Shown piece by piece: positions 20,300 through 50,255 of a stretch of DNA of 64,000 nt. The notes under the pieces are model-generated. The model saw only the letters and a program-made list of their open reading frames with translations, had not been told where the DNA came from and made no database searches. Position 1 is the stretch's first letter; each line of letters starts with the position of its first letter. This stretch comes from an uncultured Bacilli bacterium (GTDB lineage Bacteria > Bacillota_I > Bacilli_A > RF39 > UBA660). A program made the translations under genes and the position numbers. The stretch is taken from positions 119,833-183,832 of the forward strand of contig CAKPRZ010000001.1 in NCBI GenBank assembly GCA_934183165.1, in the 5' to 3' direction.

Positions 20300-22519
20300 C
20301 TAATCGTCAAAGAAGTCATCGAAGAATCTATCTTCATTAACCTCATCATCCAAAGAAATAGTTGGTACATCTTTTTTGATTTCTCTTTTCTCTTCTACAA
20401 CTTTTTCTTCTTGTTTTATTTCCTGTTTTTCTTCTATTTTTTCTTCAGGTTTCTTTGGCATAATTCTAGAATTTATATCATTTGAAATAATACTATTAAT
20501 TCTATCTTCCATTGCTTTAGCATCAAGTTTGGCAGGTTCTTTTAGTGGAACAGGTTTAGCATTTTCTTTCTTAGCTTGTTCTTCTAATTTAGCCTGTTCT
20601 TTTTCTTCTGCTTCTAATGCTGCAATCTTGGCATCTATCTTCTTGACTAAATCATCAATATTTAAATCCCCTCCACCATTTGGTTTAGGTTTATTAAATG
20701 GATTGACATCATCACGATCTGCTTTAGGTCCAAAAAGTCCTGGAGGAGGTCCAAAAGGATTAGCTCCACCAAAGCCTCCTGGCATACCACTATCATTCAT
20801 CATATTTTTTAATTTTTCTTGACGTTTTTCTTTTACAAATTCACGCATATCAAATACTTGTACTGGTTTCTTTTCACGTGTTGGATATGTAGCTTTTGGA
20901 AATTTTTGACCAAAATTCATTTTAAAATATGGAGTGAATTTAGTCTTAAATGGTTGCATACGTATTCTTAATATAATTGTTTCAAATTGTTTCATACGTT
21001 GTAAATCAGAAACTGTAACAAGTGGTGTTGAAGCTGTTTTATCATCTTTTTTAGATTTTACTTCACCACACATTTTACTAATTTCTTCAAGTGCTTTTAA
21101 TTCTGTTGTAATAAGGTAAATTATATTACCACAGTTACCACGAATGGTTTCAGCATTTTCTTTTCCATACACTTGATCTAGCTGAGCAAAGTTCTGGATA
21201 ATCATCGTAAATCTAATACGTCTAGAACGTGCTGCTGTAATCATTGTTGTTATATCTTTAAGCGGTGGCATATTAGCAAACTCATCTAATAAGAAGTTTG
21301 TTCTTACAGGTAATTGACCACCATGTTTTTGGGCTACTGAAATTAAAGTTTCATAACATTGCTTTAATAAAATTGTAACTAATGAGTGATATGTTTTTTT
21401 CTCATCTTGAATAACAATAAACAAAGCTGTAGGTTTTTCACCAATCTCTTCTAGATTAACATCACTATATGCAAGCATTTCAGATAAGTTTTCACGAGAA
21501 GCAAATAATTTTATCTTTTGCTTAAATACTGCAATGATACTTCCCTTTGTTTCATTTGGAGCCATAATAGTTCCGCTAGCATTAACATAAGCGGCTGAGG
21601 CAGGATCCTTAAAAGAAAAATATTCTTTGGCATAAGTAGATCCTCCACATTTTTCTTCACCTACAGTTGTCATCAAACTTATTGTATTAATATTTACTTC
21701 TTCTGGTTTGGCATCTTCAAACATTCCAAGTGCTAGACCTGAGAAATAATCTGCAGATGTTTTTTCCCAGAATGGGTCAGCATTACCACTATTTTCTTCA
21801 TAAAGTATATTAGCAGCCAAGTCATCTAGAAGTTCTATTGCTTTATCCTGATTACCACTTTTATACATATTATAAGGCAATGTTAATGGATTCCATGCAT
21901 TACCTTGTTGAGGATCACGAAAGTTTAGAACTAATATATTATATCCTCTGCTTTTAAGCATATTTGCTGTTTTTTCATATATTTCACCTTTAGGGTCAGT
22001 AATAATCATTGATTCTTTATGCTTTGCTAAAAGTTCGACTGTAGGGAAAATAACAGTTTGTGTTTTACCTGAACCAGTAGCACCAATAACTAGGTTATGA
22101 TATTCACCATCATCAACCCATATTTCATGATCTTTTAAAATTAATGGAACACCAGCAACAGTAGAATTTTTAGCATTAGGATCAACATACTTTAATTCTT
22201 TTTTCATTTCTTTATCTTTAGCCCATCTTGAATAACCTTTATCTTTTTTACTAGTTGTTATACCAAAGCCTTCTTCTCTTTCGAAAAAGTAAGAACTAAC
22301 TGAAACAAAGATTCCTGCTAAAAATAAAATATAAAAAACCATAGTTGTTGTGATATTTTTTGCTGAAAAAGCAGGAAGAGGATTAAGTCCATAAAAATGT
22401 CCTTCATTTGCTAAAACAGGAATATTTAAAACACCTAATGCAACTACATACAAAAGAAATATTGCAAAAATAACAAAAATCAAAATATCCTGAGGTTCTG
22501 CTCTAAACTTTAACTTCAT
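20300..22519 (-). CDS. virD4: Type IV coupling protein (VirD4/TraG/TcpA-like ATPase)
   Basis: Two N-terminal TM helices, Walker A GATGSGKTQT, the T4CP-typical ITDPKGE block, and an acidic C-terminal tail (DDFFDD) with a Pro/Gly-rich and Lys/Glu coiled segment. Confidence 0.85.
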   Translation of the reverse strand: MKLKFRAEPQDILIFVIFAIFLLYVVALGVLNIPVLANEGHFYGLNPLPAFSAKNITTTMVFYILFLAGIFVSVSSYFFEREEGFGITTSKKDKGYSRWAKDKEMKKELKYVDPNAKNSTVAGVPLILKDHEIWVDDGEYHNLVIGATGSGKTQTVIFPTVELLAKHKESMIITDPKGEIYEKTANMLKSRGYNILVLNFRDPQQGNAWNPLTLPYNMYKSGNQDKAIELLDDLAANILYEENSGNADPFWEKTSADYFSGLALGMFEDAKPEEVNINTISLMTTVGEEKCGGSTYAKEYFSFKDPASAAYVNASGTIMAPNETKGSIIAVFKQKIKLFASRENLSEMLAYSDVNLEEIGEKPTALFIVIQDEKKTYHSLVTILLKQCYETLISVAQKHGGQLPVRTNFLLDEFANMPPLKDITTMITAARSRRIRFTMIIQNFAQLDQVYGKENAETIRGNCGNIIYLITTELKALEEISKMCGEVKSKKDDKTASTPLVTVSDLQRMKQFETIILRIRMQPFKTKFTPYFKMNFGQKFPKATYPTREKKPVQVFDMREFVKEKRQEKLKNMMNDSGMPGGFGGANPFGPPPGLFGPKADRDDVNPFNKPKPNGGGDLNIDDLVKKIDAKIAALEAEEKEQAKLEEQAKKENAKPVPLKEPAKLDAKAMEDRINSIISNDINSRIMPKKPEEKIEEKQEIKQEEKVVEEKREIKKDVPTISLDDEVNEDRFFDDFFDD

Positions 22520-22533
22520 AATTAACCTTCTTC

Positions 22534-23256
22534 CTATATTCTATTGTTTTTACTGGCTTTTTTTCTAAAGATTATTATAACAATAAATGCCAAAATTGCA
22601 AGAGAAATAAAAATTGTCAATACTATTGTAATCTTATTTTCATAATTAAAAACATATTTATCTTTATATAATTCTATATAAATACCAGCATTATCTTTAT
22701 TTGCTTCTGTAAAAGTCCAATAATAATTATATCCATCAACTCTACTTGCATTATTCGATTTAACCTTATGATTGGTTTTTAGATGAATTGTTATTGAATC
22801 TACATTGTCATAAGAAAGACAATTTATTGTATCATTAGTAGATAATATATATAATTCATTACTATCTAAAACATTGAAATATCTATAACAGCTATTAATT
22901 ATATTAGAATACTTATAATTACTAAAATCATATATATAATTATAAACTATTCCTAATTCTTTTTTATTATCTACCTTTTTCTTTTTATAAAATGTATTAG
23001 CATCATTACTTAAAGCTGGGAATGAACTACTAAACGATCTATTAACATATTCACGAAATGTTATCAATTTATCAGTTGAGGAATCAGTACCTTTAGTACT
23101 ACCGGTCAATTCTTTATCCCATTTATAACTATCGGTATCTATCATAGATGTTTTTTCTTTTATTTTATCGTTTACTATTTCAACTTCATAATTTGCAGAA
23201 CATCCAGATAATAAAACTACTAAAGACAAAATAATTAGTATACTAATTTTTTTCAT
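22534..23256 (-). CDS. T4SS-associated lipoprotein with an additional C-terminal TM anchor
   Basis: Lipobox LLSGCSANYEV; C-terminal hydrophobic helix and a basic tail. The start moves to the ATG at 23256, preceded by AAAGGAGA. Confidence 0.5.
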   Translation of the reverse strand: MKKISILIILSLVVLLSGCSANYEVEIVNDKIKEKTSMIDTDSYKWDKELTGSTKGTDSSTDKLITFREYVNRSFSSSFPALSNDANTFYKKKKVDNKKELGIVYNYIYDFSNYKYSNIINSCYRYFNVLDSNELYILSTNDTINCLSYDNVDSITIHLKTNHKVKSNNASRVDGYNYYWTFTEANKDNAGIYIELYKDKYVFNYENKITIVLTIFISLAILAFIVIIIFRKKASKNNRI

Positions 23257-23266
23257 AGAATCTCCT

Positions 23267-25702
23267 TTACTGTTGTGGCATATCATTTGATGGTGTACCA
23301 AAACTACAATTCATCTTATTTCTAGAACAGAATTCCGTAATATTGATATCTTGGTTAACATCTTGGCCTCTAGCATTAGAAATATTGAAGTGTAAATGCC
23401 ATCCCGTTGAATTACCAGTACTTCCCATATATCCTAAGAATTGTCCTATCTGAACTTTATCGCCATTTTTAAGCTTAGGATCAATTGCATCAAAATGCCA
23501 ATATGAGAATGTATATCCTTTATATGGATCAGAATTATCAGTAACTTTTATTACAACTGCCATACCATTACATCCTGATACTCTTCTTAATGTTGTATCG
23601 GCATTACTATGTCTAGTATCAGAGCAATAATACTTAGATCTATCATTTTGAAGTAAAGTAATTGTACCACTATGGGCAGCAACAATTGGTATTTTAGTAC
23701 ATTTTTCACGACCACCGCCTGAACAAGCAATATCTAAAGATCCATGATATCCAGTGAAGTAATAGTATCCACCTGTAACTGTTAAATTACTAAGTGGAGT
23801 ATTCAATGGCAAAATACTAGTTGAATATATTCCTTTAGTACCTAATTGGATTCCACCAGCTACGCCTAGACCCATTTGAGTAATTTGAACACCATCACTA
23901 TAGAAGAATTTAAGTATTTCATCATACTTTTTACCTTGCTTTGCCATTTGATAAGATACTAACTGACTCATACCATTAGCATGTCCTTGACCAGTAGTAA
24001 TTCTACTATATTGAGATGAATCACTTAATGTTACTTTATGAGTTTCTCCTTTTGGCAATTTTTTATAAGTTACACTATAAGTACCATCAGCATTTCTTGT
24101 AGCATCAGGACAATCTGAATCTGCATAACAAAAAGAGTCATATTGAGCAGAAAAGTATTTGCCATTATAAGTTAAAACCATTCCCGCTGTTTCATTAGCT
24201 GCTTTTAAAGATAATGGAGCTTGTTTTTTTACATACTCAATATCATGAAATGTTTGAGCATTTGTACTGTTTTCTATAGGCTTAGTACATCCAGCAGTAT
24301 AATTAAGAGCATATGTTCTAGCCGCAATAGCTTGAGCTTTTAAAGCTTCTAATCCACCATCTTGGTATGCTTCATGAGCTACAACACCAGCAACATACTC
24401 CTCTAAATCCATAGTACCAACACCAGTTACAGTAATACCATTAGGACACAAGTTAGAAATTATTCCTCCATTTAGAGAATCAGCCTTTAAGTCTTTGTAA
24501 TACAAATAAATAAAACTGATTATTTCCTCTTTTTTATCTGCTAATTTATCACCGCTTAATCCTTCTATATATTCTTTATAATAATCTTTTACAAAGTCTT
24601 TATATAACCATTGAAAAAATTTACTTCCAGTATTTTCAGGATCATTATAATTTCCTTCTGTTACATCATTCCCGCTATCAGAAATAGCATTATTTACTTT
24701 TTTTATGTATTTTCTAACTTTTGACTTTGACAGTTTAGCAATACCATTTTTATCTACATCTTCAAAACAATCACCATTTTCTTGATCCTCATCACTACAT
24801 GTATCAGTTGATTCGGAATCGTCTTTTGAATAATCATCATTGTCATTTTTATACCCAACTAAAACAGCAACAACCATTTCTTTATCGGTAGTAACCATAC
24901 TATTTATCTTATTATAGAAATATTTATATTCTTCACCTACTGCTTCTTCACCTTGAGCACTACCAAATGCCTCACCCTTAAAGAAACTCATACTATCAGT
25001 AAATTTAGAAATAACACTAATAGATATCATTGATATAGTAAAAAATGTAACCAGTACAGGTATAAGATAAATAATAAGTTTTTTCTTAACCGTACTAGAA
25101 ATTACAATTTCTACAAGCTTTTTTGTTCCTGCAGACAAAGCAGATATGGGATTTGACGCCGCACGAGCAGCCTCAACCGCTGGCTTTCCTTTTGAAGTAT
25201 CAAGCATTTTTTCTGCCACTTCACCAGCACCAGGAGCAGCAGCATTAACTGCTGCCTTAACTCCTTTTTTAAATGCCATCTCATTCAATTTTGCTTTTTT
25301 CTCTTCTACAACTCTTTTTGGAGCATTTACTTTATCCTGAATAGCTTTCTTTTTTGCTTGTAATTGTTGTTGTTTTTTCTTTACTGATTCAGGGACCATT
25401 TTATTGGCAGCATTTTTAATACCCGCCTTTGCTTTATCTTTTGTTGCGCCTATTTTTTCATTTACTTTATTTGAAATAGCATCTTTTGCTACTCCACCTA
25501 ATCCATTTGCTTTATAACTATTTATAAAGTTATTAGCTTTAGCTGCGTTAGATAATAATCTTGAACCTAATCCTTGCTTTTTTTCAGAAGAATTATCCTT
25601 TACTGAATCAATATCATCTGAATTATATGGATTTAAATTAGTATCACTTTGAGGAACATCTTGTTCTAATTCCTTGTTTTGATCATTCAAGATTATCACC
25701 AC
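23267..25702 (-). CDS. Conjugation-type cell-wall hydrolase: Lys/Ala-rich cytoplasmic N-terminus, TM, SpoIID/LytB-like domain, C-terminal M23 peptidase (VirB1/PrgK/TcpG analogue)
   Basis: VAHEAYQDGGLEALKAQAIAARTYAL (SpoIID/LytB block). M23 motifs: SLDIACSGG...(HxxxD region) and GSTGNSTGWHLHF. Probable GTG start. Confidence 0.75.
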   Translation of the reverse strand: MVIILNDQNKELEQDVPQSDTNLNPYNSDDIDSVKDNSSEKKQGLGSRLLSNAAKANNFINSYKANGLGGVAKDAISNKVNEKIGATKDKAKAGIKNAANKMVPESVKKKQQQLQAKKKAIQDKVNAPKRVVEEKKAKLNEMAFKKGVKAAVNAAAPGAGEVAEKMLDTSKGKPAVEAARAASNPISALSAGTKKLVEIVISSTVKKKLIIYLIPVLVTFFTISMISISVISKFTDSMSFFKGEAFGSAQGEEAVGEEYKYFYNKINSMVTTDKEMVVAVLVGYKNDNDDYSKDDSESTDTCSDEDQENGDCFEDVDKNGIAKLSKSKVRKYIKKVNNAISDSGNDVTEGNYNDPENTGSKFFQWLYKDFVKDYYKEYIEGLSGDKLADKKEEIISFIYLYYKDLKADSLNGGIISNLCPNGITVTGVGTMDLEEYVAGVVAHEAYQDGGLEALKAQAIAARTYALNYTAGCTKPIENSTNAQTFHDIEYVKKQAPLSLKAANETAGMVLTYNGKYFSAQYDSFCYADSDCPDATRNADGTYSVTYKKLPKGETHKVTLSDSSQYSRITTGQGHANGMSQLVSYQMAKQGKKYDEILKFFYSDGVQITQMGLGVAGGIQLGTKGIYSTSILPLNTPLSNLTVTGGYYYFTGYHGSLDIACSGGGREKCTKIPIVAAHSGTITLLQNDRSKYYCSDTRHSNADTTLRRVSGCNGMAVVIKVTDNSDPYKGYTFSYWHFDAIDPKLKNGDKVQIGQFLGYMGSTGNSTGWHLHFNISNARGQDVNQDINITEFCSRNKMNCSFGTPSNDMPQQ

Positions 25703-25719: not shown

Positions 25720-27513
25720 TTATAGACCTCCACCTTCACCAAATGAAGATAATTCTTCAGGAGTAACTACAACATTAATTCTCATTCTACGATTACCACA
25801 TACAAACAATGCTTCACCTTGAGAATACTGTTTTATACTTTCTTTTTCATTATCATTTAAATCGATTAACATAGCCAAGTCCTCTACAGCTTGTTTCTTT
25901 AATCCCATTACTAGGTAGTAAGAAGCATTATCAAATATTGCTTTGCCTTGCATTAATACATCTGGTGCTGCAAAGTCACTAGGTTGCTGTGTAATAATTA
26001 TTGACCCTGTATTATATTTACGCGCACGTCTTTGTACTTGAGCTAAGAAATCAGCTCCAAGTGAATTATGTTCACCAAGTAAAACATGTGCTTCATCAAC
26101 CATTAATACAGTATCAACATCTCTATCAAGACATAATCCCCAAGCATATTTTAATATATTAAAGAATAATGCATTCTTAACATTTGATTCCGCATTCATA
26201 AGCTCTTTTATATTAAATACTATAAAATCACTTTCATGAGAAATCGTTGTATGTCCATCGAAATAATATTTTAATTCTTTTGTTAATGGTCTTACTTTTA
26301 ATTCAAGTTTTTCTAATATATCTCTTTCATGTGTATGCTCTGGCATAGAAACCAAGATTGCTTTTATCGTTTCATATACATCAGAAAATGTTGGATAGTC
26401 ATTCGGACCAAAATCATAGAAATTGGTATTAAAGTCCACTCCAAATCTTTTGTATGTATCTTGTACGATTTCACTAAACAACGTTAAAACATCTTCTTCT
26501 ATTGATGGATCATAATATTTCATAAAAGCCTTTAAAAATTGTAAAGCACGAGTTAAAACAGTATAACCAAGTCCTTGTTTTATTTCTTCTTCATCAGCAT
26601 CTATTACAATTTGAAGTGGATTTATCATACCGTATTCTCCACCCTTACCTAAGTCAATTGTATCTCCACCAAAAGATCTAGCCATTTCACCAATTTCATC
26701 TTCTGGATCTATTGCTACTATCTGACAACCATTTCTTATATGTCCACGAAGTAATAACTTAGCTGCTGTTGATTTACCAGAACCAGACGTACCTAAAAGA
26801 ATCATATTAGCGTTATTTCTGTTATTTTCTTTTTTGATTTTATATAAAAATTGATTAAATAAAATTACACCACCTGAGAAGTCAACTCCTAAAAGTGTTG
26901 AAAGTCCAGGATCTTTAATACTATCAAAAATAAATGGATACATGGCACCTAACGTAACTGAAGGAATTGGAGTACCAATTCTATCTTCAATATCTTGTTT
27001 AGGGAATATTGGAAGAATTGATTTTAAAACTTTTTCTTGTTCAAATCTAAGAGAAACTGCTCTCAATTCCATTGCATCTAAGTAATTCTTAACATTTACT
27101 TTTTTCATTTCTAATTCTTCCTTAGTATCAGCAACAATCATTATATGCATTTGAAAATCAAATATTTTTGATTGACTTGATGCTAACATAGAAACAAAAT
27201 ATTCAAGTGATTCATAGTCAACTCTTATTCTTTCTTGAATAGTCCTATCTTTTTCATTTTGATAATTTACTTTTAATTCAGCAATTTGTTTATTAAGCAT
27301 TTTAGCAAGTGTTGAAAAAGGAACAGGAATATGTTTAATAACAACTTTTATTCCTGGCATAGTTGTAAGTGTTGATAAATAACCAGGAGAGATAAATTTA
27401 GGATATGATACAACTGTTAAAAGAGTTGCATATTTATCACTAATAAAGAAATCACTAGGATTGAAGTGTAATCCTTTAGGAGCAATTTGAGATTTAAATT
27501 TCATTGTACTCAT
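25720..27513 (-). CDS. virB4: VirB4/TrbE/CagE-family conjugative ATPase (C-terminal two-thirds)
   Basis: Walker A LLGTSGSGKST. VirB4-typical DEAH-like block LMVDEAHVLL. C-terminal RRARKYNTGSIIITQQPSD. Its ATG overlaps the stop of the upstream ORF (ATGA). Confidence 0.85.
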   Translation of the reverse strand: MSTMKFKSQIAPKGLHFNPSDFFISDKYATLLTVVSYPKFISPGYLSTLTTMPGIKVVIKHIPVPFSTLAKMLNKQIAELKVNYQNEKDRTIQERIRVDYESLEYFVSMLASSQSKIFDFQMHIMIVADTKEELEMKKVNVKNYLDAMELRAVSLRFEQEKVLKSILPIFPKQDIEDRIGTPIPSVTLGAMYPFIFDSIKDPGLSTLLGVDFSGGVILFNQFLYKIKKENNRNNANMILLGTSGSGKSTAAKLLLRGHIRNGCQIVAIDPEDEIGEMARSFGGDTIDLGKGGEYGMINPLQIVIDADEEEIKQGLGYTVLTRALQFLKAFMKYYDPSIEEDVLTLFSEIVQDTYKRFGVDFNTNFYDFGPNDYPTFSDVYETIKAILVSMPEHTHERDILEKLELKVRPLTKELKYYFDGHTTISHESDFIVFNIKELMNAESNVKNALFFNILKYAWGLCLDRDVDTVLMVDEAHVLLGEHNSLGADFLAQVQRRARKYNTGSIIITQQPSDFAAPDVLMQGKAIFDNASYYLVMGLKKQAVEDLAMLIDLNDNEKESIKQYSQGEALFVCGNRRMRINVVVTPEELSSFGEGGGL

Positions 27514-28058
27514 AGAGCCACCACCGTTCCAAATTCAGTTGTTGAACCACCATTTAAGAAGTTATCTAATATAACTCTTAAATCATCATTAGTTGTTTGA
27601 CTAGCAACTAATCCACAACCAGATAATCCATTAATTAATAATCTTACTTTTTTCTGCATTATTTCAGGATTTTTTTCTTTAAATAAGATGTAATATTCTG
27701 TATCAACAACATTGTTATTCATGAAGCTATTACCTTTATTTATATCTTCCATTACTAGCTTTCTAATTGCATTTGATTGACTTTGGTTATATAAAAGTTG
27801 TAATTGTGATAGATAAACAGTAATATCTACTGGTCTATCCGCACATATTAACCAAAATTCGAAATCAAGCTGATTATAAAAGTTTTTTAATCCTGTCAAA
27901 ACATTTGCTTGCGATTGTTCATCTAATATGAATATATTACGAGGCATTATTTTAACGCCTGTAACATTCAACTTATTTTCTAGAATAATAACTCCATTAT
28001 TAATTGCTTTAACTGGAACCCAATCTTCTGTATATTTACTACTCATCGTCTTTGCCAT
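27510..28058 (-). CDS. VirB4 N-terminal-domain-like protein (separate ORF, translationally coupled to virB4)
   Basis: 182 aa. The sequence VKAINNGVIILENKLNVTGVKIMPRNIFILDEQSQANVLTGLKNFYNQLDFEFWLI resembles VirB4/TraC N-terminal regions. Stop/start overlap TCAT/ATGA with the next ORF. The 182 + 597 aa total approximates a full-length VirB4. Confidence 0.45.
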   Translation of the reverse strand: MAKTMSSKYTEDWVPVKAINNGVIILENKLNVTGVKIMPRNIFILDEQSQANVLTGLKNFYNQLDFEFWLICADRPVDITVYLSQLQLLYNQSQSNAIRKLVMEDINKGNSFMNNNVVDTEYYILFKEKNPEIMQKKVRLLINGLSGCGLVASQTTNDDLRVILDNFLNGGSTTEFGTVVAL

Positions 28059-28362
28059 TTAAACAACACCAACCTCTCCATATATATCTTCTTCTATCTA
28101 CAAAATAAAATTTGTATATGTTATTTATAACAACCATTATATTATGTTGATTCGGAACTGGTAAAACCAAAAATCCTGTGATTATTGCAGGAGATAAAAC
28201 TCCTATTGCTACTACTGCTTCACTGATATTACTTTGGAATATCAAAAGTAAGATTAATGTAGTAGCAACACCTGAACCAAATACAATCAAATCTATTGGT
28301 CTAAAAAAGCCAAATATAAGTTTTCCCCTTTTCGAGTTAGCGGGGATTAAATATCCATTCAT
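28039..28362 (-). CDS. VirB3/PrgI-like small two-TM protein
   Basis: 107 aa, two hydrophobic helices, positioned immediately upstream of virB4 as in Gram-positive T4SS loci; RBS GGAGTG. Confidence 0.4.
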   Translation of the reverse strand: MNGYLIPANSKRGKLIFGFFRPIDLIVFGSGVATTLILLLIFQSNISEAVVAIGVLSPAIITGFLVLPVPNQHNIMVVINNIYKFYFVDRRRYIWRGWCCLNGKDDE

Positions 28363-28379
28363 CTATTATCACACTCCAA

Positions 28380-31603: not shown

Positions 31604-31652
31604 AAAAAACCTCTCCCAACTATTTATCTACTAATATCAGTATAACATAAAA

Positions 31653-31686
31653 ATAACAATAGAAAAAGTAATTTCTATTGTTATTT
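31653..31686 (-). terminator. Intra-cluster hairpin (possible attenuator or partial terminator)
   Basis: aataacaatagaaa-aagtaa-tttctattgttatt, then a T-rich tract on the minus strand, lying between the 32823..31696 gene and the 31603 gene. Confidence 0.35.
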
Positions 31687-31695
31687 TATGTTTTA

Positions 31696-32823: not shown

Positions 32824-32914
32824 GTTAACCTCCATAATTATTATCAATAATTATATGATATCTCAAGTTTTATGTTTAATCAAGAAATATTAAAAAAAAA
32901 AGACTAATGAAATT

Positions 32915-33277: not shown

Positions 33278-33347
33278 TTTTAATTCCTCCTAAATCTACA
33301 ATAAATATATCAATATTTAACATTAATGTCAATATTTATTGAGTACA

Positions 33348-34826: not shown

Positions 34827-35012
34827 TTACTTAATTAAACTATAATCAATATATGTAGTACTTCCAATATTTCTAACTTCAATATTATTAACTTCTTTTT
34901 GAATTTTGTTGTTAATTAAAGGCCATATAACTGTTGTTCCTAAAGCTAAAACAGCTATAATACCTACAATAACAACGATAGTCATTGTCATATCTCCAGT
35001 CGCTTCTTTCAT
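34827..35012 (-). CDS. Flp-type major pilin candidate (61 aa)
   Basis: MKEATGDMTMTIVVIVGIIAVLALGTT..: pilin size and topology, strong RBS AAGGGAGAG, preceded by a 120-nt intergenic region. Confidence 0.45.
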   Translation of the reverse strand: MKEATGDMTMTIVVIVGIIAVLALGTTVIWPLINNKIQKEVNNIEVRNIGSTTYIDYSLIK

Positions 35013-35133: not shown

Positions 35134-35922
35134 TTAAAAACTAAACATAAATAACATTGAGAACATAAGTACAAGTAACATACCTCCACCAGTTACAACT
35201 AGCATTATCATAGTTCTTCTTTCCATCCAATCAAGTCTGGATTTATACTTAACTTCTCTTGCTTTATTTTGAAGTGATGAAACTGATTTAGAAAAAAGTA
35301 CTAATTGTTGATGTTTATTCTCTTGTGCTCCTAAACTAAGTCTATATAAAAGTCTCATCATACGCATTGAATCTTTTACTGGATATTCAATAGCAAAATC
35401 CATATATGGTTGAATTGATGAATCACCTGCATCTATTTTAGCAACCATCTCTCTTAACCCTTTTTTAAATATTTCTGGAGCTTCTTCAATAGATCTTGAT
35501 AACGCTACTGGAACAGTATAATTTTGACAAAGAATTTCAAGTCCCTTTAAATAATATGGTAACATTTGATCTACTTTTTGCATCTCTTGTTTATAATATT
35601 TTTTTAAGGAAAAATATGGAATTTTATATACTATAAAAGTACCACCTAATATTTTTAAAATACTCCATACACTCATATTAGTTATATAAAATAATGTCAT
35701 TAAAAGAAGAACATATCCTGAAAGTCTTATTCTTTTACTATATAAAATATTAGGATCAGCATCAGATCCATATTTAGCATTAACTAAGAAATTATAATCT
35801 TTTTCTCTTAAATAGTTAACACTTGAGTCACTTGATATAATAAATTTTTGTAATGTTGTTTTATTATTATAAACAACTATAAATAATATTAAACCTAATA
35901 CAATAAAAATTTCTATATTCAT
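35134..35922 (-). CDS. tadC: TadC-like inner-membrane platform protein (GspF/T2SSF family)
   Basis: Polytopic 262-aa protein; start overlaps the stop of the upstream TadB-like gene; position and size as in tad loci. Confidence 0.55.
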   Translation of the reverse strand: MNIEIFIVLGLILFIVVYNNKTTLQKFIISSDSSVNYLREKDYNFLVNAKYGSDADPNILYSKRIRLSGYVLLLMTLFYITNMSVWSILKILGGTFIVYKIPYFSLKKYYKQEMQKVDQMLPYYLKGLEILCQNYTVPVALSRSIEEAPEIFKKGLREMVAKIDAGDSSIQPYMDFAIEYPVKDSMRMMRLLYRLSLGAQENKHQQLVLFSKSVSSLQNKAREVKYKSRLDWMERRTMIMLVVTGGGMLLVLMFSMLFMFSF

Positions 35923-36815
35923 TATTCAGCCCCCACATTCTCATTATAATATTTTTCACCAGAAAGTAAGAAATATGAATTAATCCATAATAATGCATGA
36001 AGGGCAACCTTTACAATTATATTATCCTGAATTTCAATATATTTATCAACTCCCAAGATTCCTTGAATAAGTACAACCATAAAATATAAAACTAATCCAA
36101 AGGTAATAAATTTACTATGGAAATTTTTTCTATCAATTCTATCCGCATATACTCCTTCAACTAATTGGTCAATATCAAGTAACATATTTTCTAATATATC
36201 ATTCGAATCTCTAGAACCTTCTTTAGTTATCTGTAAAAATAATTGATGCATATTTTTAGACATATAAAAGTCATATTTTGAGTTCATATAATTAATTGAT
36301 TCATGGACATCCCCATTTTGATACGCTAAATCTATCATCATTTTAACATCTGATTTAACAGGATCTTCTAATACTCCAGAATTATATACTCCTTCTAATG
36401 CTTTTACAAAACTTTGAGTAATTTGAAATTCCATAATAGTATTAGTTGTATATGTCTGAATCTGTTCAAATATAAATTCACTATATAGTCTTTTACATCT
36501 TAAATATGACAAATATGGAATTAATATAAATACAAACAAGCAATATACTATTGAAACAACAATGTTATAGAAATATAAATAAGTAATTAAGAATGTACCA
36601 CCTATAAATATTATAAATTGTATTAAATATTCTTTAGGTGTCATCTCCATTCCCATATCTTTTATTTTCTTACGCATCATTTTAAATGAATATGGTGCAT
36701 ATTTTTCATATAGATTAGTACCAGTATTATTGATAAATTTATAGAATTTTTCACCACTTCTTAAATAGTTAACAACTATAAAAAGTAATATTGCACCTAC
36801 TATTAAGTACTCCAT
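35922..36815 (-). CDS. tadB: TadB-like inner-membrane platform protein (GspF/T2SSF family)
   Basis: Polytopic 297-aa protein immediately downstream of the CpaF-like ATPase. Confidence 0.55.
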   Translation of the reverse strand: MEYLIVGAILLFIVVNYLRSGEKFYKFINNTGTNLYEKYAPYSFKMMRKKIKDMGMEMTPKEYLIQFIIFIGGTFLITYLYFYNIVVSIVYCLFVFILIPYLSYLRCKRLYSEFIFEQIQTYTTNTIMEFQITQSFVKALEGVYNSGVLEDPVKSDVKMMIDLAYQNGDVHESINYMNSKYDFYMSKNMHQLFLQITKEGSRDSNDILENMLLDIDQLVEGVYADRIDRKNFHSKFITFGLVLYFMVVLIQGILGVDKYIEIQDNIIVKVALHALLWINSYFLLSGEKYYNENVGAE

Positions 36816-36832: not shown

Positions 36833-38107
36833 TTATTCACCAGATCTTAATTTATCCATATCTACTCCTTGACCTTCTAGGTATTCAAGTAAATATTTAC
36901 TTACAGGATTATATGTTTCAACTCCTGAAATAGTTTTTTTATAAATAGTGTTAGATCCAATTTCATTATTTTCATCTACATAAAATTCAGTAACTTCTGC
37001 AACTTCTCTTACGAAACGTTTTTCACTAGGAGAATATCTACCTCTTACCATAACTCCTAATTGAACATATCTATATATTGTTTTTAAGAATTGTTCAACA
37101 TCAATATTAGATTCAAGTAAGCTATACATACGATGAGGTATACTTACAGCTTTATCAGCATGAATTGTTGATAAAATATTATGTCCTGAAGAAATTGAGT
37201 TACGAACAGCAGTAACAGCTTCAGCACTACGAACTTCTGATAGTAATATCCATTTTGGATTTTGTCTCATACAAGTAACCAAAACATCAGAGTATGATGC
37301 GATATTATTTGTTTTCATAGCTACAATATCACGTTCAGGAAATATTCTATCTAAGTGAAGTTCTAGTGTATCTTCTATTGTAATTATTTTTTCATTATAA
37401 GCAGTATGACTAGCTAAATATTTAACAAGTTCTGTTTTACCACTACCAGTCTCTCCACAGACAATGATATTACAATGTCCTTCTACTGCATGAATTAAGA
37501 AATTATGAATATCTAGATTGATATATTTTTCTCTTAAGATTTTATCTTTTTCTAGTCTTATTTTAGCTGGTGTTTTACGGAAAACTGCCGCTACTCCATT
37601 TCTAGCAATCGAGTGATGAACAAAGTTCATACGAAGTTCAGCGCTTTCTGAGTCAAGGAATGGATGAGCAGTATTAAATGACTTACCCATTATGTTTGAA
37701 CATTGAAAAGCTATTTTTTCAATTAAAGCATTATTAACTCCTGGTTCATCAACTCTAAAAACTCCTCTATCAAGAGTTTTCAACCATAACTGTCCACCAT
37801 TACTATAAGAAATATCTGTAACATTATCGTCATCTAAATATTTCTTTAATGGTCCAAAGTCCATACTTGAGAATATTGCTTCTTCTTCAATTCTCTCATC
37901 AGCATTTAGATTAATTTCTTTTTTTATGTCTGTATTATTAGTAGTATTTACTTGCTGAGGTGTTGGTTGAACTTGTTGTACTGGTGTTCCAGCATTTGTA
38001 TTAGTTACATTTTGTTGTGTAGGTACTTGCTGTGTTGTTGTGTTATTTACTACATTATTATTAGTCGTACCATACCCCATTCCATTTAAGTTCATCTCTG
38101 GATCCAT
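36833..38107 (-). CDS. tadA: CpaF/TadA-family secretion ATPase (VirB11/GspE superfamily) with an N/Q/T-rich N-terminal extension
   Basis: Walker A GETGSGKT. Asp box IITIEDTLEL. His box and Walker B regions in the usual GspE-family order. First about 60 aa are low-complexity (NNVVNNTTTQQVPTQQNV...). Confidence 0.85.
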   Translation of the reverse strand: MDPEMNLNGMGYGTTNNNVVNNTTTQQVPTQQNVTNTNAGTPVQQVQPTPQQVNTTNNTDIKKEINLNADERIEEEAIFSSMDFGPLKKYLDDDNVTDISYSNGGQLWLKTLDRGVFRVDEPGVNNALIEKIAFQCSNIMGKSFNTAHPFLDSESAELRMNFVHHSIARNGVAAVFRKTPAKIRLEKDKILREKYINLDIHNFLIHAVEGHCNIIVCGETGSGKTELVKYLASHTAYNEKIITIEDTLELHLDRIFPERDIVAMKTNNIASYSDVLVTCMRQNPKWILLSEVRSAEAVTAVRNSISSGHNILSTIHADKAVSIPHRMYSLLESNIDVEQFLKTIYRYVQLGVMVRGRYSPSEKRFVREVAEVTEFYVDENNEIGSNTIYKKTISGVETYNPVSKYLLEYLEGQGVDMDKLRSGE

Positions 38108-38116
38108 AATATCCCT

Positions 38117-38980
38117 CTATTCTTCATTTAATTTTGAATTTTTTTCTATTTCATTTATATCGATATCTTTAGTTTTGTCTTCAATATAATTTTGTAACTG
38201 TTCACTTGTAATAGTAGCAACTACTTTTTCACCATCTTCAGATTCATATTTTTGTCCTCTTGGAACAATAATAAATTCTATTTCAGCTACTCCACTTAAT
38301 TTTGAGAAGTATTCAGCTTTTTTCATAAGTAAAGCTTGTTCTTCTGGTACAGAGAATAATACACTAGCAGGTTCTCTTGTTTCATCTGAACCAAATACGT
38401 TTTTTCCATCAGCAGTTTTAACAGCTAATATTTTAATTTTATTAATTAATTTACCAACAATAATTTCATTATCTGTTTTCTTATTGTTAGAATCTTCTGG
38501 TAATACACCAACTGTTCTAACATATAAATCAAAGTAATCACCTGGCACTAAAGAGTTATAATAACTTGTTGCCATATTTACTTTTAAATATAATAATGTT
38601 TCTCCATCTGGTATATCAAGTAGAGCTGATGTTGGTAGGTTATCTTTTGTTGTTATCGCATTCTTATAGAAGAAGCTTCCAGAGTATATAGTTGACTCTA
38701 ATTTAGCATACTTACCTATTACATCTGCTGATTGTGTAAATATAACATCTTTATTTACTGCATCTGCAGCTATTGTCATAGTACCTACCATTTCTGAAGT
38801 TATTTTTGTTTGTGGACTTATAGTTTGTTTTGCATAAACTACTTTTACTGGACTAGTAGCAGCATTGATTCTAAAATTATAGAAAATAACTAATATAACT
38901 CCTATTAAAATAAATGCAAGTGCTGTTACAAAGTTTTTGTTACTAAAAGCTTTTTTTAGTTTCATCGAAAAATTATTCAT
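38117..38980 (-). CDS. cpaB: CpaB/RcpC-like Flp pilus assembly protein
   Basis: N-terminal TM, then a SAF/beta-rich domain; size and position upstream of cpaF match tad loci. Confidence 0.5.
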   Translation of the reverse strand: MNNFSMKLKKAFSNKNFVTALAFILIGVILVIFYNFRINAATSPVKVVYAKQTISPQTKITSEMVGTMTIAADAVNKDVIFTQSADVIGKYAKLESTIYSGSFFYKNAITTKDNLPTSALLDIPDGETLLYLKVNMATSYYNSLVPGDYFDLYVRTVGVLPEDSNNKKTDNEIIVGKLINKIKILAVKTADGKNVFGSDETREPASVLFSVPEEQALLMKKAEYFSKLSGVAEIEFIIVPRGQKYESEDGEKVVATITSEQLQNYIEDKTKDIDINEIEKNSKLNEE

Positions 38981-38995
38981 ATTCCATCTCCCTTT

Positions 38996-39478
38996 CTAAT
39001 CCTTTGTTTCTAGTATTGATGTTAATTTAGTTGTTATGATCGTATTATCGTCGCCTGTTTTTCTACCTCTAAATAACTTTCTTACCCAAGAATAATTTTG
39101 TTTTGCTTTAACCTTTAAACTTACTTTAGCTGGACACTCTTGAACTTTATAAATTTCAACAGTATAATCTGTGTTCTGAGCTGCAACTTCAGAAAATCTT
39201 CTAGCAAAGTTTTCAACAAATTTTTCTGTTACTATTCTTATTGTACCAGGTTGTCCTGAATCACAATCAATAGTATTTATCTTATCCACCTCATCTTGAG
39301 TTAAGCCTATTTGATAAGCAACATCATCAACTGAATCTAGCATAGCGTTTTGTGTTGCTTCTTTTAAAAGATAATAATCATGTTCATCTTTTACACTAAT
39401 ATTACCGAAAAGCATAAGAAGTGCAGCAGCAACTATGCCTAATATCAAGAATAAATATCCCCACATTGACTCTGACAT
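38996..39478 (-). CDS. Membrane-anchored pseudopilin-like protein (TadG/TadE-position)
   Basis: The start moves to the ATG at 39478 (GGGGG RBS; the ORF-track start is a TTG). N-terminal hydrophobic helix WGYLFLILGIVAAALLMLF, then about 130 soluble aa. Confidence 0.4.
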   Translation of the reverse strand: MSESMWGYLFLILGIVAAALLMLFGNISVKDEHDYYLLKEATQNAMLDSVDDVAYQIGLTQDEVDKINTIDCDSGQPGTIRIVTEKFVENFARRFSEVAAQNTDYTVEIYKVQECPAKVSLKVKAKQNYSWVRKLFRGRKTGDDNTIITTKLTSILETKD

Positions 39479-39480
39479 AA

Positions 39481-42363
39481 TTAATCTGCCCCCTTCCAAT
39501 AATCTTCATTAACTCTTGTAAAGATTGATGTATTATTATCTACATAATCACTCCTAAAGAATGACCCATTTGTTTCATATTTACCAATAAAGTCAGCATA
39601 TACATTTTTACCTGAATCTTTTGTATCTTGCTTTATTCTTTTAATATTATCAGCACTCAAATTTATTACATATATAGGCTGTTCATTATAATCATTATCG
39701 TCTACTGTATATTTTTGTTCGTAACCTTTCCAATTAGTACCTGCGTTACGCTTTGGAAAAGCATTAAACTTAAATGTAGGATTATCACTTTCACCTAAAG
39801 CTATTGGTCTATAAGTATAACCTTCACCAATTTTAGTAGTAGTACATGTATTTATACAAGAATCCTCAGATTTATATCCAGAATTTTCATAATTAATATG
39901 ACACCAATCTTTTATTTGTGTTGTTTGATTTGGTTTAAATTTATTTTCACAAAGTTCTTTTCCATCTTGATTACTACAATCTGATACACAGGAATCATAA
40001 CTTCCATATCCAGCTGTATCTTTATCCCAATTTTCTCTACAATATTTTTTGATGCCTGCATAATTAGCCGGTTTATATAAAACCTTACATGTTTTACTAC
40101 CAACTGGTGTCTCTTTATTTCTTATTATTACTGGACAACTAACTGTCACATTATTTCCACTAGCAGTAGTATATGTTACACTTCCATCAACTTTCTTTGT
40201 TTCGTTGTGGTTAAGAGTAATTATATCTGAATGTTCACTATTACAATTAGTAAGAGTTCTACCATTAAATTTACAACTAACACCTAAATCACTTCTATTA
40301 GTAACGTTATATTTTACTTTATATTTTTTATCTTCTATTTTTTCAAAAGATATATTACATTCTGCCGTCTCATCTTTTGTTTCATTTAAATAGTAACACT
40401 TGTTTTCCTTAATACAACTATCATTTTTTAAACTTTCTTTTGTAACTTTAACTTCTACAGGAACTTTTGTTTTTAATTTACCATCGGCATTTGTAACTTT
40501 CTTAATATAATATCCATAATAGAAAGTTTCAGCTTTGCCATCATTATTACAAGTTAAATCATCTGTACTAGAATTCCAAACAACTTCTTGTGTATTATCC
40601 TTCAAATGATAACACATTTGTGGTAATTCCCATGATGATGTGTTAGTCGATTCAAAAGTTGCTTTTAAATTTTTATTTAAATTTTCTCTAACATCCCCAT
40701 AGTTATGAATAGTTCCACTATTAACTGATTTTCTTGTGGTATCTGAAGTATTATCAATTTTCTTATGAAGTGATTTAGTATCATTCCCATTTACTGTCAT
40801 TTTGATTGTATCGGAATCATCCCATTTACATTTATAGTTTTCGTCTGTAGTACTTGTAGTCAATGTTTGAAAATTTTTAAGAGCCTTTTCAGGAACAGAA
40901 TTACCTTTTCCTCTATTGCTTCTTTTTAACGCTGCGTATTCAAATTCATATTTCTTTGTATTAAAAGTTATTGTACAAGTTTTAATACCGTTTGTATCAA
41001 CAAAGTAATTAAATCCGCCTAAACTGTTTATAAAAACCTTAGGTAATCCACTCGAATAATTTAAAGTTAATTTTTCAGTACATTCCCTTTTATAATATTC
41101 GGAAGGAATACATGTATAACTTTTTACAGTATTTATTGTTTGGCAAGTAGCACTATTAGTATTAGTACAAGTATTAGCAGAACAAGTAGAACCCCTCGGA
41201 TCAGAATATCCACAATGTTCAATACAAAACTTTTTTTTAGATGAATCAGTACTTTCTGGATCATTTTCACAATAGTTTTCAGCACATTTTAACCTAGCAT
41301 TAGTATCTCTAATTGTACCACTACAAGCAGAATTGCAACTCTGGATAATATCGGTTAATTTAAAAATTGTCATTCCTATTGCACGATTACTCCAAATATT
41401 AGCTTGATTGATTTTTTCTGCAGGTCGCAAAATATTACTATCACTACCTCCAACAATAAGGTTTCCATTTACATATACCGTACCATTTATATACATAGCC
41501 TCTGCATATCTAGCAAATACACCTGTATGATTATAAAATTGATTTAATTCAAATACCGTTCCAACATAATTTCTGTTTTCTTCAAATCCATTTGGTCTAC
41601 TACTTGCATTATTAGTAGATATTGATCCTAAAATTTCAGCAGTGAAAAAATACCTTTTCGGATTAGCTTTAATTTCATTCAATTCATTAGAAGTCAACTG
41701 ATATTTATTTTTTATTTTTTCATAACCATTAAATGTTTTTATAATACTATTATTTTTTAGATATTCTTTTCTCTTACTTTTATCATAACCATTCCCTATC
41801 CATTCTAGAAAATTAGAATTATAAATAATAGGATCTCTATTATTAGCCCATCTTAATTGATTAGTATTTCCATTTTTAAGTTTCACCAACTCATTCAATA
41901 GTGTATAATAATTGGTCAGACCTTTATACGTTGATGAGGTTAAACTAAACCTAGTACTATCTGGCCTTTTCCCATTTTTTTTATCAGAAATAACATTACT
42001 ACTTCTAGGGTCGGAAAACCTTTGTGGTTTAGTTTGCTTACCTTTTGAATCATATCCATAATCCCATGGTTTTCTTTCTTGAGTATTACTGCAAGATGAT
42101 GATGGATTTCCACAAGCTGTGTCATATCTCCAAAAATCATGACTTTGTCCTACTTTTTTGGCTGTTGTAGAGTTAACATATTTGTACAAAGTAAATCTTA
42201 AACCCATACTATTATAACAATACCCAGTACCTAGACAACTATCTGCCCAATTACCAGTACCTGCTGTATCAACAGGTTCTATTTCTATAGCTGCATAAAC
42301 AGAATTAATTCCAAATACTGTGGCAAATATTACTGTCAAAAGAAATGCTTTTAATGATTTCAC
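39481..42363 (-). CDS. Giant secreted cysteine-rich protein (960 aa); candidate pilus-tip adhesin / surface adhesin
   Basis: Cleavable signal peptide (INSVYAAIE). Dozens of Cys in CxxxC / C-x-n-C modules (e.g. CNSACSGTIRDTNARLKCAENYCEND...CIEHCGY). Asn/Thr/Lys-rich, no TM anchor. Confidence 0.6.
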   Translation of the reverse strand: MKSLKAFLLTVIFATVFGINSVYAAIEIEPVDTAGTGNWADSCLGTGYCYNSMGLRFTLYKYVNSTTAKKVGQSHDFWRYDTACGNPSSSCSNTQERKPWDYGYDSKGKQTKPQRFSDPRSSNVISDKKNGKRPDSTRFSLTSSTYKGLTNYYTLLNELVKLKNGNTNQLRWANNRDPIIYNSNFLEWIGNGYDKSKRKEYLKNNSIIKTFNGYEKIKNKYQLTSNELNEIKANPKRYFFTAEILGSISTNNASSRPNGFEENRNYVGTVFELNQFYNHTGVFARYAEAMYINGTVYVNGNLIVGGSDSNILRPAEKINQANIWSNRAIGMTIFKLTDIIQSCNSACSGTIRDTNARLKCAENYCENDPESTDSSKKKFCIEHCGYSDPRGSTCSANTCTNTNSATCQTINTVKSYTCIPSEYYKRECTEKLTLNYSSGLPKVFINSLGGFNYFVDTNGIKTCTITFNTKKYEFEYAALKRSNRGKGNSVPEKALKNFQTLTTSTTDENYKCKWDDSDTIKMTVNGNDTKSLHKKIDNTSDTTRKSVNSGTIHNYGDVRENLNKNLKATFESTNTSSWELPQMCYHLKDNTQEVVWNSSTDDLTCNNDGKAETFYYGYYIKKVTNADGKLKTKVPVEVKVTKESLKNDSCIKENKCYYLNETKDETAECNISFEKIEDKKYKVKYNVTNRSDLGVSCKFNGRTLTNCNSEHSDIITLNHNETKKVDGSVTYTTASGNNVTVSCPVIIRNKETPVGSKTCKVLYKPANYAGIKKYCRENWDKDTAGYGSYDSCVSDCSNQDGKELCENKFKPNQTTQIKDWCHINYENSGYKSEDSCINTCTTTKIGEGYTYRPIALGESDNPTFKFNAFPKRNAGTNWKGYEQKYTVDDNDYNEQPIYVINLSADNIKRIKQDTKDSGKNVYADFIGKYETNGSFFRSDYVDNNTSIFTRVNEDYWKGAD

Positions 42364-42373
42364 ACGATCACCT

Positions 42374-42994
42374 CTAAATATCTATTTTCTTCTTCTTAAA
42401 TTTTTTATAAACTAATATAACAACTACTATTCCAACAACAGAAGAAAAACTAATTAATATTATATTTTTATTTTCTTTAATAACTTCCAAGAATGTTTTT
42501 TTCTTTTTCACTTCTTTTTGCTCGCTAGATTTTAATTTTTCTGTAAATTCTTCTAACGTCATTCTATTAATGTTATACCATTTCTGACATAAAACACTAT
42601 CACTATATTGTTTACATATATCACTATTATAATATTGATTATAAGAAGGAGCTTTTATCCTAATAGTTCTTAAAACTTCTTCATTGCAATTTGTCTTATC
42701 ACTTGCGGTTATATAATATCTGTAACTACTACCTGGAAATAGTTGCCCTACAAATGATTTGTTTTTATTGTATATTTCAGAAAAATCATCAATGATTATT
42801 TTTTCATTTAAATTATATACATATAAATTAAACACTCCAACTTTTTCATTAAATTCATAAGAAGTTTCTACTTTTTTTGCTAGTTCCTTTAATTCTTTTA
42901 GCTCTTTATCAGTACACTCTGCTGCTTTAACATCAATAACACATAGAAAAGTGCAAAACACAAAAAAACAAATATTAAGAATTTTATTCTTCAT
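42374..42994 (-). CDS. Secreted Cys-containing protein with a C-terminal TM anchor and poly-Lys tail (first gene of the locus)
   Basis: Signal peptide (CVIDVKAAE), six Cys, C-terminal helix plus KKFKKKK; RBS AGGAGAG. Confidence 0.5.
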   Translation of the reverse strand: MKNKILNICFFVFCTFLCVIDVKAAECTDKELKELKELAKKVETSYEFNEKVGVFNLYVYNLNEKIIIDDFSEIYNKNKSFVGQLFPGSSYRYYITASDKTNCNEEVLRTIRIKAPSYNQYYNSDICKQYSDSVLCQKWYNINRMTLEEFTEKLKSSEQKEVKKKKTFLEVIKENKNIILISFSSVVGIVVVILVYKKFKKKKIDI

Positions 42995-50252: not shown

Positions 50253-50255
50253 AAC

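Follow-up and report, generated by a model that had tools for sequence, protein, structure and literature searches.

We analyzed a stretch of 64,000 nucleotides (nt) from an uncultured Bacilli bacterium of the RF39 group (assembly GCA_934183165.1, contig CAKPRZ010000001.1, positions 119,833 to 183,832), which is called the window in the following and whose own numbering is used throughout. On its minus strand, 20 genes follow each other from position 42994 down to position 20300, separated according to the open reading frame (ORF) calls by intergenic gaps of 0 to 121 nt. The upstream part of this locus encodes a secretion ATPase together with membrane proteins and pilin-like proteins (the filament-like block), the downstream part the ATPases, channel components and cell-wall hydrolase of a conjugation-type type IV secretion system (T4SS). 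An initial annotation, made from the letters alone, had described the region as a single co-directional locus of 23 ORFs, in which a Tad/Flp-type pilus module is joined to a Gram-positive T4SS core. Strand, coordinates, short gaps and the order of the genes agree with the ORF calls; the number of genes is 20, as nested or overlapping ORFs (e.g. 28337-28639 and 32890-33051) do not count separately. The locus is chromosomal: the window also contains ftsA, ftsZ, ftsK, YebC, M16 peptidase genes, teichoic-acid and lipid genes, and cotZ; the GC content is about 28% throughout, being the same in the locus and in its flanks.

The identity of the T4SS block is most evident from its two motors. The last gene (20300..22519) encodes a VirD4-type coupling protein of the CD1115 family, which matched T4SS-DNA_transf with 202 bits and NCBIfam conju_CD1115 with 304 bits (cut-off 250). 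VirB4 is encoded by two overlapping ORFs (25720..28058), namely an N-terminal part of 182 amino acids (aa; 27510-28058), for which a TraC-like domain was recorded, and an ATPase part of 597 aa (25720-27513). AAA_10 and P-loop_TraG were above their cut-offs and CD1110 scored 177 bits; the best NCBIfam match was VirB4_plasma, the VirB4 family of mycoplasma integrative conjugative elements (ICE), with 355 bits and thus below its cut-off of 590. The split was found in every relative examined and also in plasmid pBMB67 (hyp227 plus a DUF87 protein), so that the gene is not a pseudogene. Upstream of VirD4 and a lipoprotein gene lies a cell-wall hydrolase with SpoIID/LytB and M23 domains (23267..25702), both above the Pfam thresholds; among relatives, the catalytic modules differ and are M23 plus lysozyme or SpoIID plus CHAP. 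Thus, the assignments of VirD4, of the split VirB4 and of the SpoIID+M23 hydrolase made in the initial annotation stand, and the failure of VirB4 and VirD4 in hidden Markov model (HMM) searches, which it had named as a reason to abandon its reading, did not occur, as both pass Pfam thresholds.

The smaller T4SS components were recognized at the level of families. For this purpose 169 related loci were collected, and many members of each family were scanned together. A VirB6/TrbL-like polytopic channel protein (28380..30335) gave weak matches to NCBIfam MMCAP2_0566 and Mbov_0396, both from mycoplasma ICE; TrbL_4 matched 14 of 18 members of its family. Directly upstream of VirB4 is a small VirB3/PrgI-like membrane protein (28039..28362), whose family was matched by PrgI in 4 of 24 cases and which aligned with PrgI of pBMB67 with an hhalign probability of 47%. 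In the window itself, neither the VirB6-like nor the VirB3-like protein reaches the thresholds. A VirB2-like T4SS pilin-type protein (32915..33277) is characterized by two transmembrane helices and a terminal pair of Cys residues; T4SS_pilin (PF18895) matched 21 of 30 family members, and relatives possess one to three copies. A domain of this type also forms the C-terminus of a secreted 423-aa protein (30332..31603; T4SS_pilin 22 bits, residues 336-401), the C-terminus of which can be aligned by eye with the 120-aa VirB2-like protein. For VirB6, VirB3 and VirB2, the previous calls are consequently upheld for the families only. Taken together, VirB4, a coupling protein, VirB6-like and VirB3/PrgI-like proteins and a hydrolase are present, as expected for a Gram-positive (MPF_FATA-type) T4SS. 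The block further contains a lipoprotein with a lipobox and a C-terminal membrane anchor (22534..23301), for which an HMM search gave nothing above noise and of which recognizable homologues occur in nine loci only. Finally, a membrane-anchored bitopic protein of 383 aa (31696..32847) consists of a long N-terminal helix and a C-type-lectin-like head (DUF6273) with six invariant Cys residues; it is a putative adhesin. A VirB8/TcpC-like scaffold was considered for this protein and ruled out, as the confident model shows the lectin-like head and not NTF2-like domains.

The central component of the filament-like block is a secretion ATPase (36833..38107; T2SSE 91 bits, Walker A motif GETGSGKT) of the VirB11/CpaF/FlaI group, in which it probably forms its own clade. 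NCBIfam ranked VirB11 (107 bits) before TrbB (96 bits) and the TadA-like TIGR03819 (92 bits), all below cut-off; a profile of the family compared with PDB gave 64.8 bits for VirB11 HP0525, 56 bits for FlaI and 55 bits for CpaF; and in BLAST comparisons the protein scored 114 bits with a canonical CpaF-like ATPase encoded elsewhere in the window versus 120 bits with the "VirB11" of pBMB67. The initial name CpaF/TadA was therefore correct with respect to the T2SSE ATPase, but too specific, as VirB11 and CpaF are equally close to the enzyme. Upstream of it, a CpaB/RcpC-like bitopic protein with a SAF domain (38117..38980) scored 27.6 bits with RcpC (cut-off 28.8) and 35 bits with TIGR03177 (below cut-off); when 24 members of its family were scanned, 23 matched RcpC and five SAF, so that the CpaB assignment, and with it the CpaB/RcpC component typical of Tad systems, can be maintained for the family, the window protein itself remaining slightly below the threshold.

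Two polytopic membrane proteins follow the ATPase, "TadB-like" (35922..36815) and "TadC-like" (35134..35922), neither of which had a match in Pfam, NCBIfam or PDB searches. The TadB-like protein has at least 8000 relatives, and none of the 120 listed carries a Pfam domain. A profile-profile comparison linked both to T2SSF platform proteins: with a T2SSF profile of 97 sequences (the canonical T2SSF of the window and 96 representatives), hhalign gave a probability of 67.5% for TadB-like (E 5e-5, 166 co-linear columns) and of 48% for TadC-like (E 1.8e-4), in both cases over the equivalent region, whereas controls with nine other families of the locus and with reversed alignments did not exceed 2%. 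The signal appeared only with the full T2SSF profile; comparisons of locus families with individual sequences from the canonical Tad genes in the window were negative. Hence, the TadB and TadC calls lack an HMM match but retain a remote link, and we regard both as divergent T2SSF-like platform proteins.

Three small proteins of this block resemble pilins in their N-termini. These are a 61-aa protein (34827..35012) with the leader MKEATG followed by about 20 hydrophobic residues, a 158-aa pseudopilin-like protein (34335..34811; leader M-[KR]-E-[AS]-x-G-G), and a DUF5411 protein (38996..39499; Pfam DUF5411 112 bits), which starts with MSESMWG and continues into a hydrophobic helix. In the 61-aa family the leader is conserved as M-K-[EA]-[AS]-[TS]-G-[ED]-L-N. 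Common to the three families is a short charged leader ending in Gly and preceding a hydrophobic helix (M-K-E-A-T-G-E-L-N, M-R-E-S-x-G-G and M-K-E-S-x-W-G, respectively), which looks like a class-III signal. For the 61-aa and 158-aa proteins, Pfam and NCBIfam including the Flp HMM gave no match, and the earlier pilin calls are thus without support from these databases. The same is true for the call of a TadZ-like pseudo-ATPase, a 320-aa protein (33348..34310, here Z) with a degenerate P-loop-like stretch: its alignment with ParA-type TadZ is short, weak and confined to the P-loop region, and the Walker lysine is missing from the family consensus. The label "Tad/Flp-type" is not supported, since the module fails most criteria of Tad membership: T2SSF and Flp HMM matches and a Flp motif are lacking, no prepilin peptidase was found in the window, and the ATPase is not a clear member of the CpaF clade. 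Judged from the sequences, the block is better described as a divergent VirB11/CpaF-like, type-IV-filament-like module, not a demonstrable member of the Tad family.

The locus opens with two Cys-rich secreted proteins. The first has 206 aa, 7 Cys residues, a signal peptide and a hydrophobic stretch forming a C-terminal membrane anchor (42374..42994); an HMM search gave no match, but in 59 of 89 loci the first gene encodes a homologue (23-28% identity). The second comprises 960 aa with 33 Cys (39481..42363) and is a fast-diverging, poorly conserved surface protein, a recognizable homologue being present in 24 loci only (median identity 31%). It may serve as an adhesin; in the counterpart position, pBMB67 encodes a large surface protein of 851 aa and pAW63 one of 1416 aa (PMC1196294). 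Divergently transcribed from the locus is the gene of a PedC-like, thioredoxin-fold lipoprotein (43125..43544, plus strand; Pfam Thioredoxin, lipobox and CHNC motif), which adjoins the locus or sits inside it in distant relatives, too. The probable role of this protein is to introduce disulfide bonds, outside the cell, into the Cys-rich secreted components.

In order to determine whether the two blocks belong together, we inspected the neighborhoods of both in related genomes. Among 56 species-representative loci with at least 9 kb of sequence downstream of the ATPase, 32 have VirB4 within about 10 kb downstream and four more show VirB6 at the contig edge; in the remaining 20, housekeeping genes follow after the Z and VirB2-like genes. 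Conversely, among 36 metagenome loci anchored at VirB4 and extending at least 9 kb to its upstream side, 30 contain TadB/C-like genes there, and VirD4 comes after VirB4 in 39 of 42 loci. The association proposed by the initial annotation is thus recurrent and not due to chance, and its reservation that the blocks might never co-localize in relatives does not apply, as they are usually adjacent. At the chromosomal site marked by dagk and trx, however, three arrangements exist. The full locus is present in the window, in L001-L006 and in L010 (related loci are numbered with the prefix L); L171 and L172, whose ATPases are at least 90% identical, contain only the filament block with the genes of Z, the VirB2-like protein and the 383-aa protein (Z-B2-b383); and L090-L094, whose VirB4 is 92% identical, contain only Z-B2-b383 and the T4SS. 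Z is accordingly present in both partial arrangements. The flanks differ between the three forms, which makes a rearrangement at a Z-B2-b383 "hinge" likelier than a simple deletion. In L171, a second PedC-like thioredoxin-fold protein (16855-17388, weak match) comes after the lectin-fold gene and is followed by housekeeping genes. A further variant is L104, where a divergent ATPase of 651 aa (48% identity; 2227-4182) is placed directly between the thioredoxin and Z genes; CpaB-like, TadB/C-like and pilin-like genes are absent from this locus, and no VirD4 was found within about 10 kb downstream of its VirB4.

The transcription signals point to a subdivision of the locus. The initial annotation had reported one internal hairpin (31653-31686), which is indeed visible and AT-rich, and a terminator at the far end, which was likewise seen: it is a bidirectional hairpin (20271..20294, sequence AAAAAAGCTTCAAATGAAGCTTTTTT) between the VirD4 gene and the convergent cotZ. 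It had overlooked a sigma-70-type promoter on the minus strand (33304..33332; TTGACA, 17 nt, TG-n-TATATT), which is located inside the 33278-33347 junction directly 5' of the VirB2-like gene, agrees with the consensus at 11 of 12 positions and is the top match in the region. Of 84 distinct related intergenic regions at this junction, 73 possess a promoter with at least 10 of 12 matches (mean of shuffled sequences 5.1) and 70 an exact TTGACA (shuffle mean 1.0). Signals were also seen in front of the gene of the 61-aa pilin-like protein, namely a hairpin resembling a terminator (35125-35108) and a promoter-like site (35075-35047). The locus thus comprises a minimum of two transcription units, and probably three, with the two subunit genes each at the head of one. 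As the promoter at the 33.3 kb junction is conserved, the locus is not one operon, and the occurrence of either half alone at the same chromosomal site in close relatives speaks against a "single locus" in this sense as well. Independent regulation at the junction had been listed beforehand as an objection to the joint reading; the conserved promoter gives weight to this objection.

The system is widespread and belongs to the chromosome of its hosts. A scan with one genome per species, which used two peptide patterns specific to the ATPase family, yielded at least 561 matching stretches. The best 80 of these originate nearly all from uncultured metagenome-assembled genomes of gut and rumen, labeled Bacilli, Tenericutes, Mollicutes, Acholeplasmataceae or Erysipelotrichaceae, and include one closed chromosome of 1.26 Mb; the exact ATPase of the window was found in contigs of a human gut (Hadza) metagenome, with flanks identical in kind. 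Across the related loci, the median identity to the window was 84% for VirB4 and 75% for the ATPase (89 loci), 62% for the TadB-like protein and for DAGK, a flanking housekeeping protein, and as low as 35% for the VirB6-like, 31% for the 960-aa and 28% for the anchor protein. The dagk-trx flank is kept while DAGK identity drops from 80% to 56%, and in the loci with this flank the divergence of the flank correlates with that of the system (Spearman rho 0.86 for the N-terminal part of VirB4 and 0.89 for the TadC-like protein). Synteny, correlated divergence and the conservation of the motors argue for vertical inheritance, with strong constraint on the motors and fast change in exposed parts. 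Such change is seen among strains, too: in L001-L006, whose ATPase is identical to that of the window, the products of 28380-33277 differ in size (423 or 421 versus 388, 651 versus 620, and 120 versus 118 aa), which indicates replacement or diversification of surface parts at the strain level.

In the 64-kb window, most ORFs of at least 90 aa were scanned with Pfam and others were read directly; genes for a relaxase, an integrase, replication or a transposase were not found among them. In 14 related loci, the genes downstream of VirD4 are housekeeping genes (RmuC, SpoVA, tRNA synthetases, BipA, ScpA), and none of the 42 ORFs encodes a relaxase or an integrase. A megablast search of the whole locus against plasmids gave no match at the DNA level. 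On the grounds of flanks, composition and synteny, an origin of this copy as ICE or prophage was rejected, and the framing as a conjugation machine is not supported for a chromosomal copy without relaxase or integrase in these scans.

Several features in the neighborhood deserve mention. A canonical Tad-type locus (49548-54117, minus strand) adjoins yebC and the M16 peptidase genes. It consists of two TadE-like pseudopilins (53743-54117 and 53445-53756), a ParA-type TadZ (AAA_31; 52638-53429), a T2SSE ATPase with 220 bits (51281-52660), a T2SSF protein (50256-51260) and a second, T2SSF-like one (49548-50252; hhalign 98% to the T2SSF profile), all encoded on the minus strand; genes of a Flp pilin or a prepilin peptidase were not identified beside it. 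Given this separate locus, the module at 42994-20300 cannot simply be equated with the Tad pilus of the cell. Facing the end of the VirD4 gene in convergent orientation are two tandem genes for CotZ-like spore-coat proteins (19425-20270, plus strand; 8-9% Cys); together with SpoVA near related loci, they suggest that at least part of the lineage is spore-forming. Just downstream of the locus lies one of two paralogous genes for membrane-anchored proteins without Pfam match (18143-19213, 356 aa, and 10473-12002, 509 aa; both minus strand), which have the N-terminal motif F-K-N-x-V-G-R-x-S-N-E-T-x-K-x-R-K before the transmembrane helix in common. On the other side, a 501-aa polytopic membrane protein, also without Pfam match, is encoded between the thioredoxin and amine oxidase genes (43582-45087, minus strand); its weak BLAST matches inside related loci (L026, L039, L099 and L110, among others) are partly on the opposite strand and may thus be spurious.

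The closest characterized relatives are conjugative plasmids of Bacillus. A tblastn search with VirB4 against plasmids was led by those of B. thuringiensis with 29.6% identity. Among them is pBMB67 (NC_009841.1), which by its gene content would be a member of the pXO2/pAW63/pBT9727 family of the Bacillus cereus group. Its T4SS block comprises a MobP3 relaxase, a VirD4 of the CD1115 family, TrbL, PrgI and a split VirB4; next on the same strand are a large surface protein, a DUF5411-like protein, a SAF/RcpC protein, an AAA_31 ATPase and a T2SSE ATPase, after which come two unannotated polytopic proteins, a small protein and a DUF4320 protein. The window shares this co-directional design, a hydrolase and small pilin-like proteins being further common elements, and eight components correspond one-to-one. 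The matches were strong for VirD4 (E 5e-68, 32% identity), the ATPase part of VirB4 and the DUF87 protein (E 2.5e-95), the N-terminal part of VirB4 and hyp227 (E 2e-12), and the two secretion ATPases (E 6e-33); hhalign assigned CpaB-like to the SAF protein (99.9%), TadB-like to hyp305 (91.8%) and TadC-like to hyp244 (94.8%). PrgI and the DUF5411-like protein correspond weakly, the latter scoring 26 bits with DUF5411. Differences exist as well: sequence identity to pBMB67 is low (23-32%), in pBMB67 the T4SS block comes first and the TadZ protein, a recognizable AAA_31 ATPase there but not in the window, is placed before the ATPase. Moreover, pXO2/pAW63-type plasmids possess a MobP3 relaxase as well as replication and partition genes and transfer themselves, whereas the copy in the window is chromosomal and a relaxase was not found. 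The tra region of pAW63 has been described as co-directional, 42 kb long and encoding homologues of VirB11, VirB4 and VirD4 (PMC1196294), and the literature on pAW63 and pXO2 names the ATPase VirB11 (PMC1196294, PMC9673590). A similar mixture, in which cpa and tad genes accompany virB4, virD4, virB11 and genes resembling virB5/6, has been reported for the Listeria island LGI1, which was likened to the system of pXO1 (PMC2834635, citing Grynberg et al. 2007 for the putative T4SS of pXO1); LGI1 and pXO1 are a mobile island and a plasmid, and their likeness to the window is taken from the descriptions in these papers. The hybrid is therefore not previously undescribed, as the initial annotation had supposed: pBMB67 has both blocks on one strand with one-to-one homologues, and LGI1 has a similar gene mix. 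The combination is known on mobile elements, with its filament-like side hardly discussed. What is new is the setting, i.e. a chromosomal system for which no relaxase was found and which is conserved across uncultured gut Bacilli; in the literature, including that on RF39/RFN20 genomes, we found no published description of it.

With respect to this setting, the closest analogue is the T4SS of Patescibacteria, which is chromosomal, derived from the MPF_FATA type, mostly without relaxase and widely conserved in a genome-reduced lineage; it contains VirB4, VirD4, VirB6 and arrays of VirB2-like PF18895 pilins, and its authors propose co-option for a function other than conjugation (PMC12102498). 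The comparison is an analogy only; the phylum is another one, and the terms VirB11 and Tad hardly occur in that paper, which thus discusses neither an ATPase of this kind nor a filament block (PMC12102498). Cooperation of a type IV pilus with a T4SS has a precedent in R64, where the former assists the latter (PMC3548315). In its composition, the upstream block resembles Tad (type IVc) pili and the conjugation-assisting type IVb pili of R64 and PAPI-1: an ATPase is combined with two putative platform proteins, a CpaB-like protein, and a small pilin-like protein plus pseudopilin-like ones. Mycoplasma ICE, finally, supply the best NCBIfam matches for VirB4 (Mbov_0397) and the VirB6-like protein (Mbov_0396/MMCAP2_0566), but these are below the family cut-offs (590, 70 and 90 bits), and other ICE genes are absent at the locus.

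Based on these results, we consider the locus to be a domesticated, chromosomal, relaxase-less relative of the pXO2/pAW63-type transfer apparatus, which acts as a contact-dependent transfer machine; we assign a probability of roughly 0.6 to this reading. The gene content, the homologies, the co-conservation of the blocks and the promoters are observed; from them we infer that a filament is formed, that contact is made, and what is transported in which direction. The filament module together with the surface proteins would reach through the cell wall and attach to a target cell, the hydrolase would open the wall, and a channel powered by VirB4 and VirD4 would then move a macromolecule, either DNA or protein. 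Such a machine would be inherited with the chromosome and serve the cell and not a mobile element. A number of observations weigh against this reading. About a third of the species have no VirB4 within 10 kb of the ATPase, and close relatives possess one half without the other at this chromosomal site (L171 and L172 versus L090-L094), so that the halves may not need each other. On the filament side, the leader MKEATG of the 61-aa protein with the following ELNxT is not the Flp motif G/XXXXEY, E5 and Y6 being absent; no prepilin peptidase is encoded in the 64-kb window, as no polytopic candidate was seen among the ORFs read; the Z family had no match in Pfam, NCBIfam and PDB searches, which leaves its TadZ-like identity unproven; and the AlphaFold2 model of the TadB-like protein is of moderate confidence (pLDDT 67) and has no specific fold match. 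A review from 2022 gives the same description of the tra region, and pili, Tad, deletion and mutagenesis are absent from its text (PMC9673590). A relaxase could, moreover, be encoded elsewhere in the genome.

Three other explanations were compared with the proposed domesticated transfer machine. The two blocks might be independent neighbors, i.e. a divergent Tad-like adhesion pilus with adhesins next to a separate T4SS. This is what the strong conserved promoter at the start of the T4SS block, the two partial arrangements and the 20 of 56 species without VirB4 within 10 kb would lead one to expect; we nevertheless regard it as rather unlikely, since the blocks lie side by side again and again in deeply diverged genomes (32-36 of 56 and 30 of 36 loci) and the distantly related pBMB67 has both blocks close together on one strand, the paper on pAW63 counting both within a single tra region (PMC1196294). 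Furthermore, outside this context the TadB-like family lacks relatives that stand alone or reside on plasmids, and the window has a separate, canonical Tad locus. Alternatively, the ATPase block could be a VirB11-type module, which energizes or gates the T4SS with the help of accessory membrane proteins and builds no pilus. VirB11 is the top match among solved structures and in NCBIfam and the name used in the pAW63/pXO2 literature, L104 has its divergent ATPase before Z and the T4SS without TadB/C, and the window lacks both a prepilin peptidase and a Flp motif. However, the ATPase gene is succeeded by those of two T2SSF-like polytopic proteins, an order known from type IV filament systems, the block includes a CpaB/RcpC protein, three pilin-like families have a common leader, and CpaF and FlaI score nearly as high as VirB11, which is why we give this explanation a small chance, below that of independent neighbors. 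The least plausible of the three is an integrated conjugative element or the remnant of an integrated plasmid that continues to promote its own transfer. In its favor, the core conjugation ATPases are all intact and the closest characterized relatives are conjugative plasmids; against this stand the relaxase, integrase, replication gene and transposase not found in the window or beside VirD4 in relatives, the GC content equal to that of the flanks, the missing plasmid match at the DNA level, and the same chromosomal neighbors across species, with which the divergence of the system is correlated. We judge this origin to be highly improbable.

The conservation in hundreds of related species suggests that a plasmid transfer machine has been taken over for the cell's own use. 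A more far-reaching proposal, which we put forward tentatively and hold to be clearly less probable than domestication as such, is that a lineage-wide, vertically inherited and relaxase-free machine of T4SS and filament is a core organelle of genome-reduced gut Bacilli, domesticated from pXO2-like conjugation for an obligatory interaction between cells. If this is true, the organelle would acquire or deliver DNA, proteins or nutrients, in parallel to the T4SS which Patescibacteria need for epibiotic growth. Uncultured gut Bacilli with small genomes are abundant in humans and livestock, and a 23-kb machine whose VirB4 is more conserved than the neighboring DAGK is a strong candidate for their interaction with other cells. 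The fast-varying surface parts and the differing halves in close relatives may shape the ecology of these bacteria at the strain level. Beyond this lineage, the T2SSF-like, CpaB-like and pilin-like proteins which accompany the "VirB11" of pXO2-type systems indicate that some Gram-positive conjugation systems may build a filament.

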